Assembly: GCA_048940445.1 (NCBI GenBank)
Contig: JBHLON010000025.1
Span: forward strand, 1 to 51,277
From: Promethearchaeota archaeon
GTDB lineage: Archaea; Asgardarchaeota; Lokiarchaeia; Sigyniarchaeales; SOKP01
Length of the DNA: 51,277 nt
Direction: 5' to 3'
Part shown: positions 30,358-40,562 of the stretch, piece by piece
Position numbering within the stretch: position 1 is the first letter of the stretch
How the letters are laid out: each line of letters starts with the position of its first letter
The notes under the pieces: generated by a model
Databases searched by the model: none
What the model saw: only the letters and a program-made list of their open reading frames with translations
What the model was told of the DNA's origin: nothing
Program-made: the position numbers and the translations under genes

Positions 30358-30732
30358 TTATTTCTTTCTTATTTTTTTTTCCATAAGTTTAGTATAAATA
30401 GAATTTATTTTAGTATCGACTTGAGTTAAAAGAGAGCTTTTTTTTTCTAAATCCTCTTGTAATTTCCTTACTTCCTTAATATCTGTTTTAGGATGTAGAA
30501 ATTCGACAAGAAAGGGGAGGTACTCTAATAGTTCTTCCACTACTAGCTCGCATTGTTGATAAATTTCTCTACGGAGCACTATCTCATTTACTTTCTTTTC
30601 CATCACATCTCTGATTAGAGCTTTCATTCTGAGCAACCAATCGGCATCAACCACTATTCTCTTAATATCTTCTCGTATCTCTTGGATAGTCTTTTTTTCT
30701 AATGTCATTGATTTATTCATACTTGAATTCAT
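30358..30732 (-). CDS. Small helical / coiled-coil hypothetical protein, last gene of the membrane operon
   Basis: 124-aa ORF starting 3 nt after the stop of the 1238-aa gene. Confidence 0.65.
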   Translation of the reverse strand: MNSSMNKSMTLEKKTIQEIREDIKRIVVDADWLLRMKALIRDVMEKKVNEIVLRREIYQQCELVVEELLEYLPFLVEFLHPKTDIKEVRKLQEDLEKKSSLLTQVDTKINSIYTKLMEKKIRKK

Positions 30733-30735
30733 ATG

Positions 30736-33700
30736 CTAAATCCCCTCTACAGATGCATAATCCTTAAGATTACTATAAAAGTCTCGAAATGCATGATACA
30801 ATTTATTAAGATTAGACTCTAATAGCTTTCCATCAATGTGTACATTCTCACTCTTATAAATTAAATCTTTCAAAGCTTCTAATGTATAAGGAAAATTTCT
30901 TAAATCTGAAAGTAGTGAAATAAGATCCTCAATATTTTCTCTCGTAATTGCATTTTGAGAGCCATAATAAGTTCGATACATACGTGCTAAGAATCGAGTG
31001 ATAAATTGTTTTGCATATTTGTGAAAGTTCAAGAAATCTTGGTTAGAAAGTGCTTTATGCATATAAAATAGTTCCCTTCTTACATCGGTTCCTAAGCTTT
31101 TATCTAATGCGTATTTAAGTTTTTGTTCTTTCTTTTGAGATACTACAGTTTTTGCGAAATCTTTAACAGAATCCGTTTCTTTCGATATAATAGCAACATC
31201 AATCCTACTAGTGTGTTTCGATTCATAATAGTCTGCTAAAGCTAAATCATACTGAGGGCCCACTGCATATGATGTTGCCATCTGTTCTCCTCCACCTGCA
31301 GTTCGGGGATGACTGGGAATGAGATATTTATGGTCAATCATAATTCCAAAGATCTGATTTCGTATGTTTCGCATCATAGTTCGGTCCTGACCAAATTTAA
31401 GTGAAATTGCTGGACCAAGAATATCCATTAATATCTTTAGTATTTTTTTCTTGAACAATCCCCCTACTTTTTCAACTGTCTTTATTGTTTCAAAAAAGGT
31501 CATAATTTCATCAAGAAAGATGACATATTCTCTAAAATTATTTTCAAATAATGTTGGTTTTGCTTGGGCAAGAATACGATGTTCACTATACCTTATGTCA
31601 TACCCTTGAGAACCCATATGCTTGACTATATCATGATATTCCATAGAGGGGAGTTGTGAAATATCTTCACCATCAATTGTTATAGGAAACGATTGGTAGA
31701 TGTCATCCCGTTTCATAAGCGCTCGATTGTTTATTAAATTTTTAAGATAGGGAATCTGATAAGTCTCTTTTCTTCGAGCATTATAATATCCTGTTCCATG
31801 GAGCTCATTTAAGTTCATATGGTTTGCTAAAACACTTATGTCTTGTTGATTGGTTCCTCTAAAAGTGACAATATTATGAAAAAAATTGAATACGTTAGAA
31901 TGTAAGTAATGGATATTATTACACAAGCAAATAAATCCAAAATTCTTCTGTAGTAAAGGTAAAAAAAACTTATTGATCTTACTATATTCCCCATTAGCAT
32001 CCAAAAATTTTTCTTGGAAGATAATATCTATGTGAGGGATAAAAAGAAATTTGGAATAAAATCGTGTGTTATGGTAAATATAATGTATAAATTTAGAGAG
32101 AATCACAAACACATAAAAGCATTGGCGTGTATAATCGGGATATTCGGATATATCGACGATAATTGTATGAGGTTTGGTTATGAATTCATGAGCTTTTGTT
32201 CTTTTTTCCTCTGATTGTGTAGCGTCATAAAAGAATGCCAAATCTTCAGCATCAAAATATTCAAGGTAGGAGAGAAGCGAATCACCATTAGAATCTTTTT
32301 CAAATGATGGTCTATTGTTAAACTCAACTTTCATAGCTTTAATATCGAGTCCTTGATGCTGGATCACAAAACTGCGAAACTTATTCATAATATATTTATT
32401 TGCCTTGATTGTAAATTGATAGGCATCATACATATATTGTAAATAGTGAAGATTATCGGGATCGTTCGGTACCATTTCAGAATGAATAGGATCTAAATTA
32501 AATGTCTTACCCAATTTGAAATAAAGTATATCACTGGCATATCTTGTTCCCTTAAAATATGTCAGTAATTTTCCCCAATTACCAGATATATCGAATACAA
32601 CAGAGGGGAGGTTCATTTTGATAAGTTCAGCCACTATTTTCATTGCTAAGAATTCACGCCTTTCATTTGTGCCGCAAGTAATGAGAAAAGAACGCAATTG
32701 TCTCAATAATAATCCTGCTTCTATTTCTAATTTACTTATTTCCGTATTGATGGTTTTCCCGAACACAACCTCATTCTTTAGATTCGTGGGAGTATTAAAT
32801 TCCGCAGCCACTTGCACTTGAGTACCTTTCTTTAATTCATCAGCTAAATAAATAATATACAAGAGCGTAGTGCCTTGAAAATAGACCTTTGCTAAATACG
32901 ATCCATTATATCGCAGGGAAGTATTTTTTAGGAACTCACATATCACTCCTGAACGCAATTTCATTTTTGAGAGAGGAGTAAGTGTATAGCTATTGGCATT
33001 AATATGGAAAACTTTTGAGATGGTATCTGCTTTTGTAGGCAACTCCTCTTCAATTTTTCGTATAGCATCTGTAGTAATATCCCTTATGGGAACAGAATAT
33101 GATGTTGAAATTAATATCGTAGCTTTCCACATCCCAGCCCTACGTCCTAACCACTTTTTTTCGTCAATCTCTCTCGTGACTTCTCTTGAAAGCTTATACT
33201 TTACATTATCTTTTAAATAATCTTGAGCTTGTTTCACAAATTCTAAATAGTGAACTGGAGTAGAAATGACTGTATAAGTAAAAGATAAGTCATGAGCAAT
33301 CACTCCCGATAAAAATTTCGAAAATGAACAATAAGGAGGGTCTATTACTTCAGTGACATTATATATTTGAATGCCCGTAATTTCGTGACTTCGAATATAA
33401 GCATAATAAATCTGGGGATTTTTTTTAGAGGTTAAAAACTGAATGTCATGAAAAGGTTGGATGATTACTACATTCTCATACCCAAAAATATTATTTTTAA
33501 TAAAATAAAATATAAAATCCCGTAGATACAGAAAGAATTGAGCAAATCCTATTATTATCATCAAAGGTAGTATAGAAAAGGGAGGGACTCCTAACATGAT
33601 AAATAATATAATAAAAAATGTATTTAATCCCAATGTAAATACTCCTTTTACCAGATTATGTTGTTTACTTCCCACCATAAGAGAGTTCTCTTCTGTATCG

Positions 33701-34452
33701 TATGTCTCTCTTTCATCAATTTTTTTATGGAACATTACACAACGAAACGCGTTAATTAATTCATGTCCTTTATATTGCTTAGTTTGAAAATGGTGGAAAT
33801 TTGCTGAGAACCCTGAAATTACTTGGCTTCCCACTGATTTTAATTGATCGTGCAAGAATTTTATTTTGCTCTCATTTAGCCATCCTGATACTGACCGAAA
33901 TACGGTAATAAAAATAGTGTCTCCTGTGGGACGATGCACTACTTGATAAGAGAATGAAGTTTTTGTTTCTAAAACTTGAAAAATGTTTATAAAATATCTC
34001 ATAGTAGCGTGAACAGTTTCGGGCTGTATTTCGATTTCAAAGATTTGAAGTCCCACAGTAAGCGAATCTACTTTATTAGTGTAAAACAAGGTTTCATTTT
34101 CATCCTTTATCATCCAAAAGACTAATTCTTTAAAGGGATTAAATTCTAGAGGGCGAAATAATTTTGCCAGTTGGAAGAAGGATTCATGGAATATAAGTAT
34201 AAATACAATGATAAAAGTTATTGCTAATCCTAATGATAAATATACATTATGACTCAAGAAATACATACATACCGCAAGTGTTATACCCATCCCAATTAAG
34301 AAGGTTGCCTTCAAGATTGAGAGCGTAAGATTGGTGTCTATATAAGAAGGATGAATATCAAAAATTGTCTTGAATTCATATTTGGATTCACTATTTTTCG
34401 ATTTACCTTCTTTCTCCGATTCAGTTAAAAAATGCGTATAAAACTCTCCCAT
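30736..34452 (-). CDS. Large membrane protein with a VirB4/HerA/FtsK-like P-loop fold domain, apparently catalytically degenerate
   Basis: Two TM hairpins. Fold landmarks: VVFG..., SFLITCGTNERRE (Walker A position), PSVVFDISGNW, FNLDP, TIIVDIS, KFLFIPHID (Walker B position), FGFICLCNN and IVTFR...DISVLANHMNL. Confidence 0.65.
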   Translation of the reverse strand: MGEFYTHFLTESEKEGKSKNSESKYEFKTIFDIHPSYIDTNLTLSILKATFLIGMGITLAVCMYFLSHNVYLSLGLAITFIIVFILIFHESFFQLAKLFRPLEFNPFKELVFWMIKDENETLFYTNKVDSLTVGLQIFEIEIQPETVHATMRYFINIFQVLETKTSFSYQVVHRPTGDTIFITVFRSVSGWLNESKIKFLHDQLKSVGSQVISGFSANFHHFQTKQYKGHELINAFRCVMFHKKIDERETYDTEENSLMVGSKQHNLVKGVFTLGLNTFFIILFIMLGVPPFSILPLMIIIGFAQFFLYLRDFIFYFIKNNIFGYENVVIIQPFHDIQFLTSKKNPQIYYAYIRSHEITGIQIYNVTEVIDPPYCSFSKFLSGVIAHDLSFTYTVISTPVHYLEFVKQAQDYLKDNVKYKLSREVTREIDEKKWLGRRAGMWKATILISTSYSVPIRDITTDAIRKIEEELPTKADTISKVFHINANSYTLTPLSKMKLRSGVICEFLKNTSLRYNGSYLAKVYFQGTTLLYIIYLADELKKGTQVQVAAEFNTPTNLKNEVVFGKTINTEISKLEIEAGLLLRQLRSFLITCGTNERREFLAMKIVAELIKMNLPSVVFDISGNWGKLLTYFKGTRYASDILYFKLGKTFNLDPIHSEMVPNDPDNLHYLQYMYDAYQFTIKANKYIMNKFRSFVIQHQGLDIKAMKVEFNNRPSFEKDSNGDSLLSYLEYFDAEDLAFFYDATQSEEKRTKAHEFITKPHTIIVDISEYPDYTRQCFYVFVILSKFIHYIYHNTRFYSKFLFIPHIDIIFQEKFLDANGEYSKINKFFLPLLQKNFGFICLCNNIHYLHSNVFNFFHNIVTFRGTNQQDISVLANHMNLNELHGTGYYNARRKETYQIPYLKNLINNRALMKRDDIYQSFPITIDGEDISQLPSMEYHDIVKHMGSQGYDIRYSEHRILAQAKPTLFENNFREYVIFLDEIMTFFETIKTVEKVGGLFKKKILKILMDILGPAISLKFGQDRTMMRNIRNQIFGIMIDHKYLIPSHPRTAGGGEQMATSYAVGPQYDLALADYYESKHTSRIDVAIISKETDSVKDFAKTVVSQKKEQKLKYALDKSLGTDVRRELFYMHKALSNQDFLNFHKYAKQFITRFLARMYRTYYGSQNAITRENIEDLISLLSDLRNFPYTLEALKDLIYKSENVHIDGKLLESNLNKLYHAFRDFYSNLKDYASVEGI

Positions 34453-34453
34453 G

Positions 34454-35287
34454 TTAGGATTCTCCTGATTTCAATAATTTTTTATATACAATTAAAAGTA
34501 CAATATCGCTTCCAGAGAATAATAGTAAATAGAAGCTAACTACCATAGTAATGTTGGGAAATAAAATCATCTCGTAAATGATGTTTATCCCCATAAACAT
34601 AAAAAATGCCATCACACCTAAAATGATATATTTTAAGTTTGATACCTCAGATATCTGATATATAAACGAATCCTGGATCCGCCCTTTTTTCTTAAGGGAT
34701 GTGATTGTGGTCTTCAATTTTTTCAAATATAATGCTTCCTCAAAGCATTCTTTATCAAAACCTTGCTCTAAGGATTTTTGTAGGTGTATTTCTTTCTGGT
34801 GAATATTATGTATTAACAATTGTTTTGATCGACTAGATTCGTGGTTTTTACCTTTAGTAGCCATCGTCATATATAAATTCAAATCAGTATCTCCGTGTAT
34901 AAAATCATTCCCTAAAATACCAAAGACATTGGGAACGTCAAGTTCTTGTAGCTCAAAATATAGGGAAAAAAGTTTTTTAATATGATCATATGGAAGTTCT
35001 CCTCGAAGTTTAAGGAATATAAGTTCTGTCACTTTCAAGCGTTCAATTATAGAAGCCATGAATACAGGACTCTTAATCAGGTTCTGAAAAACCATATTGA
35101 TGAATTCCATATACTGATACAAATGCTCATTTTCCTTCTTTTTTCGAGCCCGAATTCCTAAATTAGCTCCAATCTCATCAATTACGTTACTTAAAAGAAT
35201 GAATCCTACTACTGCTATTTTCTTATAATTTTGGGTTTGTTTGCAAAGATGGATAAGATGTTTTAGTTTTGAATCGACAATCTTCAT
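34454..35287 (-). CDS. Hypothetical protein with a helical N-terminal domain and two C-terminal TM helices
   Basis: 277 aa; overlaps the upstream gene by 4 nt; 1-nt gap to the next gene. Confidence 0.7.
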   Translation of the reverse strand: MKIVDSKLKHLIHLCKQTQNYKKIAVVGFILLSNVIDEIGANLGIRARKKKENEHLYQYMEFINMVFQNLIKSPVFMASIIERLKVTELIFLKLRGELPYDHIKKLFSLYFELQELDVPNVFGILGNDFIHGDTDLNLYMTMATKGKNHESSRSKQLLIHNIHQKEIHLQKSLEQGFDKECFEEALYLKKLKTTITSLKKKGRIQDSFIYQISEVSNLKYIILGVMAFFMFMGINIIYEMILFPNITMVVSFYLLLFSGSDIVLLIVYKKLLKSGES

Positions 35288-36006
35288 CCTTTTGTCACAC
35301 TCCTTTGATTTTTAATCGATTTTCTTGTTGTCTTATTTATTGAATCATTTAAAGGGAAATTACGAGTTAACTCTAGTTCCTCTTCTCGGATCAATTTATC
35401 GAAATCAATTGGTTCTTGAATGGTTTTTATATACGCATTCACATCCTCTTGTGGAGACGAAGAGGAATGCTCCATTGTAATTGATAATTTATAGTAGAAA
35501 ATAGAATAAGGAAATACTAGGATAAAACCTATTCCCTGCAGCAGATAACCCCACTCTATACTATAACTAAAAATGAGATTGAGATTTGGCTCATAAAATG
35601 ATATCCAGGGGATGTAATATTGATAAGGTATCAGATAAAAAACAGGATATATTACAAGAAAGAATCCCATGAGAAGAATGGAAAAGATAAGCACATAAGA
35701 GAATATTTTTCGTGGACTACGGAATACTACTCCAATCATGGAAATTATTAATGAAACAAAGAACACGATAATCATGGTAAGAGGTATTGGTTTTGCGACA
35801 GGAGTATAAAGTTCATTAAATACGGAACCTTCTCCAAAAATGGAATACCAGTTAAAAATAGGATTATATCCCCAATAGACTACGAGATTCCCACTCTGAT
35901 CTTTTGCCTGGAACAAATACCAATCAAAAAATAATGAGACTCCGGATATTATTATTCCAACAAGGAGCATAATTCGAAGTACATTTGATAATTTCATATC
36001 ATACAC
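35284..36006 (-). CDS. Four-TM membrane protein
   Basis: Four hydrophobic helices, an aromatic-rich loop after TM1 (SLFFDWY...WGY...NWY) and a charged C-terminal tail. Confidence 0.75.
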   Translation of the reverse strand: MYDMKLSNVLRIMLLVGIIISGVSLFFDWYLFQAKDQSGNLVVYWGYNPIFNWYSIFGEGSVFNELYTPVAKPIPLTMIIVFFVSLIISMIGVVFRSPRKIFSYVLIFSILLMGFFLVIYPVFYLIPYQYYIPWISFYEPNLNLIFSYSIEWGYLLQGIGFILVFPYSIFYYKLSITMEHSSSSPQEDVNAYIKTIQEPIDFDKLIREEELELTRNFPLNDSINKTTRKSIKNQRSVTKG

Positions 36007-36007
36007 C

Positions 36008-37957
36008 TTATTTTGCTAGGTATTCATCTAATTTTTCATCATATGTATCCTTGTTTTTATTTGACTCAAAGAGATTTTCTATCAGAGTATTTGAAGAGTT
36101 CTCAATTGGTGTGCTAAGCACTTGTTTCGTTCGATGTTCTTCGATTTGATTTAAGAGTTTATATTCTGAGGTTTTTCCAAAGCACTCATATCCAAATTGA
36201 AGCATAAGCTCATCTACAAGATCTCGATAAATTATTTCCAAACTAGCATCATCTAATTCTACTGGTTTTTGATAAGAAGGAATAGCAAATTGGTTTCTTA
36301 AGTCTTTTCGCATATTTTTAAATTTATAAAATAAATATCCTACCATTATTCCATAGACTCCTAGCATCGTATAACTCAGTCCAATAAATGGCAGTAATAA
36401 GGTTGGTATTTGAGTAAGGGCAATCATAATTGTGAGCCCCCCAAATCCCGCAGGAATAAGCGAATAATACATAAGTTTTTTTTGAAATTCTTGATTAGTG
36501 TGCTGGTAAGTATCCTCCGTTTGTTTAGCATCATTATACTCTTCAATATATCCATGTTTCTGTTCTAAAAATTCCAATAAATCAGTTATTTGAGAAGTTG
36601 AAATGTAATGGATATTATAAGTTCTCTGATACGCAAAAGGGATGGACTTCTCCACATATTTAACTTCATTATTAGAAATGAGGATGGGATCACAATATAC
36701 AGATATAATTTCTCTAGCAGAAAAAAGTGTAGACTCATTTTTTACTACTTGGTCCTGGACCATATCTATTTTAGTCATTAAAAAATTCTGTATATACTGA
36801 AAGAAATTACCGTTAATTGCCATCTCCTCAGAAATTATCTCTTGAGCATGGATTAAGTGGGACATATAAGATTTTATCAAGAAGTTGTGTTCTGCTTCTT
36901 GCTGATATTCAATAATATCTTCAGAGATTAATAATATATCCTCTATCTCAGCTATTTTAATAGGAGTGATTAATAGAATTTGTTGTTCAGGTTTGAACAA
37001 ATACATTTTAAAGAATAAAAGATCAATCTCCTGAAGGAAAGTTTCTTGAATAATTTGGGTTGGAACAGAATAAAAACCCTCAGATCCTACTTCCTTAATT
37101 ATTTGATCATAAATTGTAATAGGCTCCTCTTTAGCATGCTTCTCCAGATCTTGCATTTTTGGGTACTTCTCTTGATCATGGAGTTTTTCTACTTCTATAA
37201 TATCGGATTCATGAGGTAATTCGAAAATGCTTCTAATATGTTTAACTTTCTTTTTAGATAGTTCCTTTTCAATAAATACTTCATCCTCTATAGTTGCGTT
37301 ATCTTCTTCAATAGTTTCTATTTGTTCTTTTTGCGCTACTTCTGCTTTTAGAAACCGTTCTTGATAGGAGAACTGATCATTCTCCTCCGTTGATTTTGAC
37401 TTAATATCCTGTGAGACTAGGGCACTTTCGCTTTGTTCTTCATTTTTCACTTCTTTAACCGTTTTTATATTTAATTTTAATTGTGGAGTGTTTATAGCTT
37501 CGTAATCATTTTTAAGCCCTAAATACTCCCGTGCAGAGAGGATAAATTTATTTGCAGTTTCTATCCCGATCCCCCTAACACGGGATAGTATTTTTGGAGT
37601 AGAAAATGCAATTTTATTTATGGTAGTGTATCCAGCGTCCCATAACTTTCGTTTATGTGTAGGACTTACACCGTTGACCTTAGTTAAATCCTCATACAAT
37701 ATTTTCTCTAGTATAGCATCATTCTTAATTGGAAAATCTGAAGATTGCTCAGTAAGCGCTCGAGAGATTTCCTCAAACTTGTTCTTCCATTCAATATTAC
37801 TGTCTAATTCTGACTTTCTTAACCCCTTTTTAGATAACTCAACAGCCTGATCTATATCTCCGGATTCCAATGCCTGTTGAGTCATATCATAAAGATAACT
37901 CAACTCCCATTTCTTTTCCAATGATTCTTGCATACTGATAAGAAGTTTGCTCCTCAT
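36008..37957 (-). CDS. Membrane-anchored helix-hairpin-helix (HhH) DNA-binding protein
   Basis: Tandem HhH DLTKVNGVSP...DAGYTT...SRVRGIGIETANK (RadA/Rad51-N-like), an acidic linker, a globular domain and two TM helices near the C-terminus. True start may be ATG 37933 (leaderless spacing from the TATA box). Confidence 0.75.
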   Translation of the reverse strand: MRSKLLISMQESLEKKWELSYLYDMTQQALESGDIDQAVELSKKGLRKSELDSNIEWKNKFEEISRALTEQSSDFPIKNDAILEKILYEDLTKVNGVSPTHKRKLWDAGYTTINKIAFSTPKILSRVRGIGIETANKFILSAREYLGLKNDYEAINTPQLKLNIKTVKEVKNEEQSESALVSQDIKSKSTEENDQFSYQERFLKAEVAQKEQIETIEEDNATIEDEVFIEKELSKKKVKHIRSIFELPHESDIIEVEKLHDQEKYPKMQDLEKHAKEEPITIYDQIIKEVGSEGFYSVPTQIIQETFLQEIDLLFFKMYLFKPEQQILLITPIKIAEIEDILLISEDIIEYQQEAEHNFLIKSYMSHLIHAQEIISEEMAINGNFFQYIQNFLMTKIDMVQDQVVKNESTLFSAREIISVYCDPILISNNEVKYVEKSIPFAYQRTYNIHYISTSQITDLLEFLEQKHGYIEEYNDAKQTEDTYQHTNQEFQKKLMYYSLIPAGFGGLTIMIALTQIPTLLLPFIGLSYTMLGVYGIMVGYLFYKFKNMRKDLRNQFAIPSYQKPVELDDASLEIIYRDLVDELMLQFGYECFGKTSEYKLLNQIEEHRTKQVLSTPIENSSNTLIENLFESNKNKDTYDEKLDEYLAK

Positions 37958-37971
37958 TTATAAAGAAAAAA
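37957..37971 (-). promoter_or_regulatory. TTTTTTC-TTTATAAA promoter of the membrane operon
   Basis: TATA 37964-37957 lies 23 nt before ATG 37933. Confidence 0.6.
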
Positions 37972-38001
37972 TCTGAATAATTTAGATATAGATCTTTCAA
38001 A

Positions 38002-38042: not shown

Positions 38043-40562
38043 ATGACACTTCATAATTTTACGAGCGATGGTCCTAAAGAATTGGTATTACAAGATGAGG
38101 AAATATTCACCTATATAGCTGATAAGCGGATACTTAGAGTATTATTTGAGCAAAAGATTTTTGCATTACGGGACATTCAAAAAAAAGCTATCGAAAAAGG
38201 GTTGTTCTTTCGAAAATCATTTTTAATTTGTTCCCCATCAGGAAGTGGAAAAACTTTAATCGGAGAAATATGTGCTTTTCATAATATATTCAATAATTAT
38301 GGAAAATCTATTTATTTGGTTCCCTTCAAAGCATTGGCTACCGAGAAATTCTATTATTTCAAAAAATATTATGAACGATTTAAGGTTAAGATTATACTCT
38401 CAATTGGAGATTATGATGTAGATGATTCTAAATTAGAAAAGGGAGATTTAATTATCACTACATATGAAAAATGCGATTCTATTTTGAGAAATTTCTATGA
38501 TAAGGCATGGATCCATGATATTTCCACAATTATTATAGACGAAATTCATATTGTAGGAGATTCGGATCGAGGTCCGAGATTGGAATCTCTAATTGTAAGA
38601 TTAAACGAATTTTTGCATAATCCTCAAATAATTGGACTTTCCGCTACGATTGCGAATCCCAATTTTTTCAATGAATGGCTTACTTCACTAGGAAATAATA
38701 CAACTCTTATTCAATCCGATGATCGTCCTGTTCCTCTTCATTATCAAATTATAACTACTCAAAATAAGGATTCAACAATTAAAAAAATAGTGAAGCACAC
38801 TCTAGACCAAAAGGGCCAAGTATTGATATTTTTAAATAAACGAATATCTACACAACAATCTTCATTTTTGCTGAAAAATGTAGTTAAGAACCATATTGTA
38901 CAGGACGACTTAAATAAATGTAAAATATTCAAAGAAAAATTGAGTGAGATTAAAGGAGGGCACAAAGATATAAAAAGTATTGTAAATTATGGACTTGCCT
39001 TTCACCATGCGGGGTTGTTGCCAAAAGAAAGAAGATTAGTAGAGAATGGTTTTCGTAAAAAAGTAATAAAGGTAATATGTGCTACCACCACATTAAGTGC
39101 AGGTATTAATACACCATCGCGAGTAGTAGTGCTTCGAGACTTTAAAAAATATATCACTTCGGGGCATAATATCAAAAACTTTTCTGGGTATGTAGAAAAT
39201 GGAGATGGGTTTTATTATTTCAAACCCTTTTCTGCAAACCAAGTATTTCAGATGCTGGGAAGAGCAGGTAGACCAGGACTAGATTCTATAGGTTATGGAA
39301 TTATCTTAGTAAATAATGTAGAAGAAAGAAATTGGGTTGAGGAAAACTATTTTCAGAGAAAAGGTGCTGATAAGAAATTAATACCTATATATAGTAATCT
39401 GGTCTCGGGATTAAATAAAGTGAACATCCTTAAGGAGCAGGTGCTTTTGAGGATTTATGAAGAAGGTGCAATCACTCTTGACCAATTAAAAAGTTTTTTT
39501 GAGCGAACATATTTTTGGTTCTTTATTAAGCAAAAAATGAAGGCGCAAGAGATCCCAATCGAGCAAATCTTAATGATCCAAGAGATAACTCCTGAAAATA
39601 TATTGAAATTACATGCTGATCCTAAAAGATTAGCCCAATTAAAGCATAAAAATTATCAGATAAAAATAACTGAAGTTGCAAGTTCAATCATTGGGGGGGT
39701 TTTAAAGACCGAATTTGGTATCTATACGTGTGAATTTAGCATTGACCATGGAATTCGATGTTCATGTGGGTTCAAAAATGGTATTTCTGATAATTTTTCA
39801 AACAACGAATTTGCATTCGAATTTTGTGATCATATTACCTATTTTTTAAATTATTTGATCGAAATTTCTGATACCAATTTTAGAAAATATATAAGAGACA
39901 TTATTCCTAAATCGATCAAGAACCAGTATATCCTGAACTATTTATTTGAAAACGGATTAATCGAACCCAATCCCAATAATACAATCAGGTGCAGTCAATT
40001 TGGGAAATTAATTATTCGTTTGTATTTATATCCAACGTCAGGAGTTTTGATTCGATATAAATTGGAAAATAATCAGCTTCACACCGCCCAAGATATTATT
40101 AGGGAAGCCTATGACATACTCCGAGTAGAATTTAAAGTTAGGGATTATAAAATGCTTCAGCCAATTTTGGAATGGACAGATGAAGTACCTATTGAAGAAA
40201 TTTTAGAGCGCTATCACATTTTAGCTGGAGACTTATATACAATCCGAGATAATTTAGAGCGAATTATCACTTTTATCGGAATTATTGCTATTCATCTAAG
40301 CGAAAATGATATTGAACTTCAAGATATGATGACTCAAATTGCAGAGATGGCCGAGACTTTAAAGATTCGAGTACACTATGGAATAAAAGAGGAGTTATTT
40401 GATTTGATATTGCGTTTGGATAACGTAGCACGAGTTAGAGCCAGAATTATCTATGATGCGGGATATCACACTGCAGCTCAAGTACGTAGAAAGAATCCTT
40501 ATATATTACACCGGAAAACGGGATTAGGCGTTAATCTCTGTAAAAAAATTATAAATAAATAG
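38043..40562 (+). CDS. Ski2/Hel308-like SF2 DNA helicase with an inserted SWIM-type zinc finger
   Basis: PSGSGKT, VPFKALA, TYEK, DEIH, RGPRLE, SAT, FHHAGL, TTTLSAGIN, QMLGRAGRPG and C-terminal HhH (VARVRAR.IYDAG). Insert CSC...CDH. Confidence 0.9.
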   Translation: MTLHNFTSDGPKELVLQDEEIFTYIADKRILRVLFEQKIFALRDIQKKAIEKGLFFRKSFLICSPSGSGKTLIGEICAFHNIFNNYGKSIYLVPFKALATEKFYYFKKYYERFKVKIILSIGDYDVDDSKLEKGDLIITTYEKCDSILRNFYDKAWIHDISTIIIDEIHIVGDSDRGPRLESLIVRLNEFLHNPQIIGLSATIANPNFFNEWLTSLGNNTTLIQSDDRPVPLHYQIITTQNKDSTIKKIVKHTLDQKGQVLIFLNKRISTQQSSFLLKNVVKNHIVQDDLNKCKIFKEKLSEIKGGHKDIKSIVNYGLAFHHAGLLPKERRLVENGFRKKVIKVICATTTLSAGINTPSRVVVLRDFKKYITSGHNIKNFSGYVENGDGFYYFKPFSANQVFQMLGRAGRPGLDSIGYGIILVNNVEERNWVEENYFQRKGADKKLIPIYSNLVSGLNKVNILKEQVLLRIYEEGAITLDQLKSFFERTYFWFFIKQKMKAQEIPIEQILMIQEITPENILKLHADPKRLAQLKHKNYQIKITEVASSIIGGVLKTEFGIYTCEFSIDHGIRCSCGFKNGISDNFSNNEFAFEFCDHITYFLNYLIEISDTNFRKYIRDIIPKSIKNQYILNYLFENGLIEPNPNNTIRCSQFGKLIIRLYLYPTSGVLIRYKLENNQLHTAQDIIREAYDILRVEFKVRDYKMLQPILEWTDEVPIEEILERYHILAGDLYTIRDNLERIITFIGIIAIHLSENDIELQDMMTQIAEMAETLKIRVHYGIKEELFDLILRLDNVARVRARIIYDAGYHTAAQVRRKNPYILHRKTGLGVNLCKKIINK

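Follow-up and report, generated by a model that had tools for sequence, protein, structure and literature searches.

What does a recombinase-type DNA-binding domain do on a membrane-anchored protein of an Asgard archaeon, a group for which we know of no established mode of DNA exchange or uptake? The question is raised by an open reading frame at 36008-37957 on the reverse strand of a contig from Promethearchaeota archaeon (order Sigyniarchaeales; assembly GCA_048940445.1, contig JBHLON010000025.1), the whole 51,277-nucleotide stretch of which is referred to here as the window. The open reading frame is real, encodes 649 amino acids (aa) as listed and is hereafter called p649. We report a new protein family that combines a known DNA-binding domain with a membrane-proximal core of no recognised fold, inside an undescribed Asgard gene module; a full-text literature search returned no description of either the family or its module. 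Our best reading, which we hold tentatively, is that p649 serves as the cytoplasm-facing DNA-handling adaptor of an undescribed membrane machine for DNA exchange and recombination.

Results

Domain architecture of p649

An AlphaFold2 model of p649 computed from a 24-sequence alignment (mean predicted local distance difference test score, pLDDT, 67.7) contains five confident blocks, namely a TPR-like module (aa 19-71), a tandem helix-hairpin-helix (HhH) domain (aa 90-146), an alpha/beta domain (aa 281-475), a long helical hairpin holding both hydrophobic segments (aa 480-558) and a helical tail (aa 570-615). The resulting layout is as follows.

36008..37957, reverse strand: p649 open reading frame; 649 aa as listed, or 641 aa from the probable start ATG at 37933
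37745..37903, reverse strand: N-terminal three-helix TPR-like module, aa 19-71
37520..37693, reverse strand: tandem HhH of the RadA/Rad51 N-terminal type, aa 89-146 (Pfam, NCBIfam, PDB profile, Foldseek)
37118..37507, reverse strand: acidic, variable, disordered linker, aa 151-280 (pLDDT, charge counts, family statistics)
36533..37117, reverse strand: conserved juxtamembrane alpha/beta domain, aa 281-475 (pLDDT 73-93, conservation)
36326..36469, reverse strand: transmembrane hairpin, aa 497-544 (two hydrophobic helices, loop of about 4 residues)
36011..36325, reverse strand: C-terminal helical tail, probably cytoplasmic, aa 545-649 (K/R-rich start, motif QFGYECFGK, conserved C-terminal end)

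The HhH head resembles the N-terminal domain of archaeal recombinase in sequence, profile and structure. Residues 89-144 match Pfam HHH_5 (E 1.6e-9, above the gathering score), and positions 1-97 of the NCBIfam RadA model align with aa 90-189 (E 5e-10). When a profile of 24 p649 homologues is compared with the PDB, RadA/Rad51 N-terminal domains score best (E 1e-11), followed by the HhH domains of NusA AR, L32e and topoisomerase V. Foldseek superimposes the p649 HhH on RadA N-terminal domains with a root-mean-square deviation of 0.7-0.8 A over 58-60 residues at 37-39% identity, and both G-hydrophobic-G hairpins are retained in the family consensus. The preliminary description of this locus, made from the letters of the sequence, had recognised a RadA/Rad51-N-like tandem HhH followed by a long acidic linker, and both are borne out: from aa 151 the linker is acidic and modelled as disordered (pLDDT 27-40), and the N-terminal 480 residues as a whole are strongly acidic.

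The rest of a recombinase is absent, with no Rad51/RecA Pfam match in p649 and no RecA-fold ATPase core in its model. A RadA polymerisation motif (FxxA) behind the family's HhH was considered and rejected, because the family does not keep the Ala and the spacing is not that of RadA. At the place where RadA carries its polymerisation motif GFKSA, about 8-12 residues past the HhH, some 40% of HhH-bearing family representatives have a motif L-N-x-F/Y-S/T (LNDF[ST]); the window protein reads LKNDYEA in this stretch (aa ~147-156).

For the segment between linker and membrane, the preliminary description had pointed to a nuclease-like strand pattern, IDLLFFK...LITPIKI, and had suggested a PD-(D/E)XK fold in aa 280-480. 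The strands themselves are present and conserved (D312, K317, P332, K334), together with DPI 423-425, EK 436-437, FAYQ 441-444, N448, H450 and FLE.K 463-467. Their likeness to a nuclease is not supported: although D312 is conserved, P332-x-K334, with an invariant Pro, stands where a (D/E)xK had been supposed. The invariant polar residues of the core are D423-P424, E436-K437, Y443-Q444, N448, H450, E465, K467, Q587 and E591. The core of 21 family members gives no Pfam match even at E values up to 5, and that of p649 has no PDB sequence match and no PADLOC or PHROG match. Comparison of the middle domain with an Hjc alignment built from Asgard genomes returns an hhalign probability of 0.6-1.2%. 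With neither a Pfam nor a PDB match, an hhalign probability below 2% and the invariant Pro, a PD-(D/E)XK or Hjc-like nuclease in aa 281-475 is unsupported rather than refuted. Structure searches used the full-length p649 model, and their match lists were filled by its HhH, TPR-like and hairpin parts: Foldseek against the PDB gave HhH matches only, VIA wide matched only the hairpin, TPR-like and HhH parts, BFVD yielded nothing meaningful, and ESM Atlas scores reached at most 0.79 with a TM-score of at most 0.36.

Two side observations belong here. The Hjc model (PF01870; E at most 1e-5 or 1e-6) is found in 0 of about 30 genomes sampled from the order (families f1-f4) and in 17 of 61 sampled across the phylum, with normal controls. 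The extreme C-terminus of p649 is conserved across the family (consensus K-YSSFLED; LDEYLAK in the window protein; 36011-36040, reverse strand) and looks like a docking peptide.

Translation of p649 probably begins at the ATG at 37933 (Met9), which gives a product of 641 aa, because most homologues begin there and because a TTTATAAA box (within 37930-37975, reverse strand) lies immediately against the annotated ATG at 37957. The transcript is probably short-leadered or leaderless. The source organism belongs to a Lokiarchaeia-type family and has a G+C content of about 31%; the homologues carry the label Promethearchaeota or similar names given to metagenome-assembled genomes.

Membrane topology

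Hydropathy analysis identifies aa 497-517 and 522-544 as the sole hydrophobic segments of p649, and the hairpin that they form is present in all 21 aligned homologues. Its loop of about 4 residues is uncharged, with 0.1 Lys or Arg (K/R) per sequence, and the 15-aa flanks carry on average 3.2 K/R before and 3.8 after the hairpin. The N-terminus has neither a signal peptide, as judged by hydrophobicity, nor a transmembrane segment. Because the loop is short and uncharged, both flanks are rich in K/R and a signal peptide is lacking, p649 almost certainly has both termini in the cytoplasm, as predicted from sequence. The relatives point the same way, since an NYN nuclease occurs in them on either side of the hairpin, as would be expected if both termini share a compartment. 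The hairpin, the missing signal peptide and a cytoplasmic HhH, the reverse of the arrangement in ComEA, had all been proposed beforehand and agree with these data, the orientation as a prediction.

An exchangeable head on a constant anchor

The core profile (aa 281-649), compared with 1.84 billion proteins, retrieves 236 representatives of clusters formed at 50% identity; for 166 the E value is below 1e-30. In every case the core lies at or near the C-terminus with a variable N-terminal part ahead of it. Among the 117 representatives of at least 500 aa, 84 (about 72%) contain the HhH and 72 the TPR-like module. In HhH-bearing members the linker ranges from 40 to 328 aa, with a median of 147 aa, and 77 of the 84 linkers have a net negative charge. 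Seven representatives contain an NYN nuclease, alone or behind the HhH; it precedes the core in six of them and is C-terminal in the seventh. Given that HhH and NYN heads swap, the variable head would be a nucleic-acid module in both cases; it thus appears to be exchangeable and, wherever it can be identified, to be of this kind (HhH, NYN or both). The constant part of the family is the membrane anchor with its two juxtamembrane domains. In two homologues from genus g2 (L037 and L038) a helical region replaces the HhH, and the C-terminal tail contains an additional inserted stretch of about 140 aa.

A search of whole genomes gives full-length matches to p649 only in one family of the order (f1) and in one genome of another family. 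Outside those genomes only the HhH is matched, by RadA and similar proteins. From our own reading of the genome search, the p649 family is present in roughly 70% of genomes of the two best-sampled genera.

A conserved membrane operon with an ATP-dead partner

p649 is the first gene of a five-gene operon with intergenic gaps of 1, -4, 1 and 3 nucleotides, so that a single base separates its stop codon from gene 2. The other members and the adjoining helicase gene are these.

35284..36006, reverse strand: gene 2, p240, polytopic membrane protein of 240 aa; three transmembrane segments above the hydropathy threshold and a probable fourth
34454..35287, reverse strand: gene 3, p277, 277 aa; soluble N-terminal part and C-terminal transmembrane pair; overlaps gene 2 by 4 nucleotides
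30736..34452, reverse strand: gene 4, p1238, 1238 aa; two transmembrane hairpins, HerA/VirB4-fold domain, helical C-terminal part
30358..30732, reverse strand: gene 5, 124 aa; small, helical, weakly conserved
38043..40562, forward strand: divergently oriented Hel308-like helicase, 85 bp from the listed start of p649

The order p649, p240, p277, p1238 is kept in 20 of 20 loci from 18 genomes, and the Hel308-like helicase adjoins the operon in 19 of the 20.

The C-terminal 739 aa of p1238 were modelled on 18 homologues (pLDDT 73.7). Over about 300-345 residues the model matches HerA (4d2i, score 21.4), DndH-C (21.1), VirB4 (4ag5, 20.4) and TrwB (19.9), with SIR2-HerA, DUF4297-HerA and DndH among its closest fold matches, and the modelled HerA/VirB4-fold domain spans aa ~550-940 (31633-32805). 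The P-loop position reads TNGT...RE and contains no Walker A; the Walker B strand, TIIVDIS, keeps the Asp and lacks the Glu. A G....GK[ST] sequence occurs anywhere in 0 of 120 relatives, all of which are annotated as hypothetical and none of which has a Pfam domain. Because Walker A is absent from all relatives and the catalytic Glu is lost, p1238 is, on its motifs, a family-wide pseudo-ATPase. Internal homology between p649 and p1238 was considered and set aside (hhalign probability 2.6%, transmembrane segments only). Neither p240 nor p277 matches a Pfam, NCBIfam, PADLOC or PHROG model. The listed start of p240 is a GTG at 36006. An in-frame ATG follows at 35997 and has GGTG ahead of it at a spacing typical of a ribosome-binding site; alignments with p240 homologues begin at about residues 3-13 of the listed sequence.

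Many of the 20 loci also contain, near the operon, genes for a Hef-like helicase and two small partner proteins, for a 408-aa protein and a surface protein, and for a TFB paralog. A 774-aa protein encoded at 46365-48689 on the reverse strand (p774) and found near the operon in several of these loci has an N-terminal signal or transmembrane segment, a C-terminal transmembrane anchor and a region of the prenyltransferase-like alpha/alpha toroid type (PF00432, E 1e-17); it is probably a surface protein. A mobile element or provirus was considered and rejected, with no PHROG match and no integrase noticed in the flanks inspected.

The genome G000 has one copy of the module. The genome G250 has three complete copies (L031, L032 and L033) that are 88-98% identical in Hel308 and 75-93% in p1238; p649 evolves fastest among them, at 57-68% identity versus 75-98% for its neighbours. 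These copies may represent mixed strains instead of paralogs, the metagenome-assembled genome having 9% contamination.

Distant modules carry RadA paralogs

A profile of the pseudo-ATPase detects weaker relatives in several other Asgard families, from which ten loci were fetched. A Hel308-like helicase lies near nine of the ten, none of their pseudo-ATPases has a Walker A, and large surface proteins are encoded inside these distant modules. The pseudo-ATPase of family f21 is divided between two genes, and there the membrane operon is headed by a complete RadA paralog (HHH_5 and Rad51 core, intact Walker A) that is translationally coupled to the next gene. The f21 paralog thus stands in the operon position of p649. 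Families f30 and f31 also encode a RadA paralog, placed a few genes upstream of the pseudo-ATPase. The presence of RadA paralogs in distant modules would link the module to recombination.

On the RadAs of the f21 modules the p649-family HhH profile reaches 49-58 bits, compared with 42 and 32 bits for the two ordinary RadA proteins of G000. For a domain this short, such profile scores are suggestive only, and would fit a p649 head that is the N-terminal domain of a module-linked RadA.

Other features of these loci and genomes may be recorded here. The f21 loci (L065-L068) encode an M28-peptidase-like protein of about 880 aa with transmembrane segments within the operon and a metallo-beta-lactamase-fold protein after it, and in f30 and f31 (L071, L072) an XPD-type (DEAD_2) helicase lies between the RadA paralog and the pseudo-ATPase. 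The two full-length RadA genes of G000 are 66% identical and lie on contigs C76 (L041:1180-2427) and C3 (L042:1426-2427); the C76 copy has an acidic N-terminal extension of 100 aa with a CxxC motif.

Discussion

Together, these features suggest a logical arrangement in which p649, the four-segment protein p240, the two-segment protein p277 and the pseudo-ATPase p1238 would form a four-protein membrane complex. The transmembrane hairpin and the conserved domains on either side of it would fix p649 in or beside the complex of p1238, p240 and p277, and the TPR-like module would serve as a small protein-docking part. An acidic flexible tether of about 130-150 aa would carry the RadA-type HhH head, which would bind DNA without sequence preference and keep it at the cytoplasmic mouth of the complex. 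DNA could then be passed to or from RadA and the co-regulated Hel308-like and Hef-like helicases. As the p1238 ring would be unable to hydrolyse ATP, any pulling force would have to come from the helicases, which would power DNA movement much as ComFA does at the ComEC channel in bacterial transformation. A HerA/VirB4-fold partner fits DNA capture at the membrane, and the most likely biological role of the module is DNA uptake or exchange coupled to homologous recombination. The preliminary description, which did not consider an ATP-dead partner, had proposed that p649 could capture DNA for export, receive imported DNA or hold the chromosome at the membrane.

Several observations weigh against p649 as an adaptor in such a machine. 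A protein lacking both Walker A and the catalytic Glu would not be a pump, and the window encodes no VirB6-like or VirB2-like component, pilus or strand-processing nuclease, where p240 and p277 were judged by family models only. The HhH head is missing from about 28% of representatives and is therefore accessory to the conserved core, and RadA-type HhH domains can also act as protein-binding modules. Between the window and a second locus (L021), the membrane proteins are 43-61% identical versus 69-87% for their neighbours, and such fast evolution of membrane proteins is also typical of conflict systems. Finally, we infer rather than observe the DNA binding, complex formation and topology of p649 and the direction in which DNA would flow.

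The rate of evolution leads to the main rival explanation, namely that the operon is a membrane-associated conflict system against viruses or plasmids, in which the dead HerA/VirB4-like ring would act as a scaffold or sensor and p649 would confront invading DNA or RNA in the cytoplasm with a binding (HhH) or cutting (NYN) head. The nuclease heads of the seven NYN-bearing representatives would suit this role, as would the fast divergence of the membrane proteins relative to flanking genes, with p649 the fastest, and the patchy distribution within the family. HerA-fold proteins and Ski2/Hel308-like helicases recur in defence systems, SIR2-HerA, DUF4297-HerA and DndH are among the closest folds to p1238, and the linked helicase matches HamB models. 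That helicase, however, scores 406 bits on Hel308 versus 145 on HamB models, a comparison of the five operon proteins with PADLOC and PHROG models gave no match, and the neighbourhood is metabolic, with no defence island. Moreover, the module is present once in G000, closed or large-contig genomes have one full-length match each, and the RadA paralogs of the distant versions point to recombination, not destruction. We consider a conflict system unlikely, though with an appreciable chance of being correct.

Two narrower readings concern what the head binds and whether DNA crosses the membrane at all. p649 might tether the chromosome or nucleoid to the membrane, or form a membrane-sited repair hub for the cell's own DNA, without transfer. 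Its putative cytoplasmic DNA-binding head, long tether, two transmembrane helices and cytoplasmic C-terminal domain suit such a part, an ATP-dead ring suits a static scaffold, and the linked Hel308 and Hef helicases are fork-repair enzymes. Contact with the outside is nevertheless suggested by the surface-exposed p774 beside the operon, both in the window and in several of the 20 loci, and by the large surface proteins inside distant modules; a housekeeping role would also be expected order-wide, and searches of sister families, closed genomes included, did not recover the family. We accordingly regard a tether or repair hub as improbable. The head might otherwise be a protein-docking module that binds no DNA and recruits RadA, Hel308 or another factor, in the way that NusA AR2 binds the C-terminal domain of RNA polymerase alpha. 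Sequence and structure searches alike rank NusA AR domains among the top matches, the head comes from or is similar to a RadA domain that contacts neighbouring filament protomers, and the L-N-x-F/Y-S/T motif of about 40% of HhH-bearing members occupies the polymerisation-motif position. Retention of both G-hydrophobic-G hairpins in the family consensus, the lack of a conserved FxxA in the post-HhH motif and the replacement or joining of the head by NYN argue for nucleic acid as the ligand, and we give very little weight to docking as the sole function of the head.

A bolder extension of the proposed DNA-handling adaptor, and one that we think distinctly doubtful, would have p649 descend from a module-specific RadA paralog. 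The DNA-binding N-terminal domain would have been kept and the ATPase core swapped for a membrane anchor, creating a fixed landing site that couples DNA at the dead VirB4 ring to homologous recombination in an as yet undescribed DNA-exchange apparatus.

The proposal matters beyond one locus. p649 gives the pseudo-VirB4 module a concrete DNA-facing part, a 60-residue domain with a predicted topology, and illustrates the reuse of a recombinase N-terminal domain in membrane-tethered form. Taken as a set, the natural variants (HhH, HhH with NYN, NYN only, RadA paralog) point to nucleic acid as the substrate. If the bolder reading is true, p649 would be a core part of such an apparatus in the archaea closest to eukaryotes. 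A link between membrane and recombination in Asgard archaea bears on the origin of sex and on chromatin-membrane tethering in eukaryotes.

Comparison with known systems

The inner-nuclear-membrane proteins of the LEM/HeH type (MAN1, LEM2, Heh1/Heh2) have a small helical head that binds DNA or chromatin, a long disordered linker, two transmembrane helices and a C-terminal domain that returns to the head's side of the membrane. p649 shares this layout by analogy only; the HhH fold differs from the HeH/LEM fold. With RadA/Rad51 the likeness is confined to the N-terminal HhH, the best match of the p649 head in both sequence and structure; p649 differs in having neither a RecA-fold ATPase core nor a conserved FxxA. 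Its HhH is followed by a linker, a new alpha/beta domain and a transmembrane hairpin.

ComEA is likewise anchored in the membrane, and it works in a DNA-transport pathway through a tandem HhH that binds DNA irrespective of sequence. Its own anchor is N-terminal, however, and its HhH lies outside the cytoplasmic membrane, whereas in p649 the HhH is N-terminal and of the RadA/HHH_5 type, the anchor is a C-proximal transmembrane hairpin with both ends predicted to be inside, and the core is unrelated. No ComEA-type model matches p649, which, with its reversed topology, different anchor and unrelated core, is not a ComEA.

The HerA-effector defence complexes (SIR2-HerA/Nezha, DUF4297-HerA) and DndH share the fold of p1238, but their HerA proteins are soluble, active ATPases, in contrast to the membrane-embedded, apparently ATP-dead p1238, for which PADLOC gives no match.

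Comparable in overall plan are the Ced importer of Sulfolobales and the Ted importer of Thermoproteales, DNA importers that the available portion of PMC9905601 describes as VirB4-based and linked to repair genes, and type IV secretion systems. In contrast to all of these, the Asgard VirB4/HerA-fold protein is without Walker A family-wide, and no component resembling the HhH-transmembrane architecture of p649 appears for Ced or Ted in the available portions of PMC9905601 and PMC11868833. What the Asgard module shares with them, as far as these portions describe them, is a membrane complex around a VirB4/HerA-fold protein, small polytopic partners and a link to recombination and repair genes (PMC9905601, PMC11868833).

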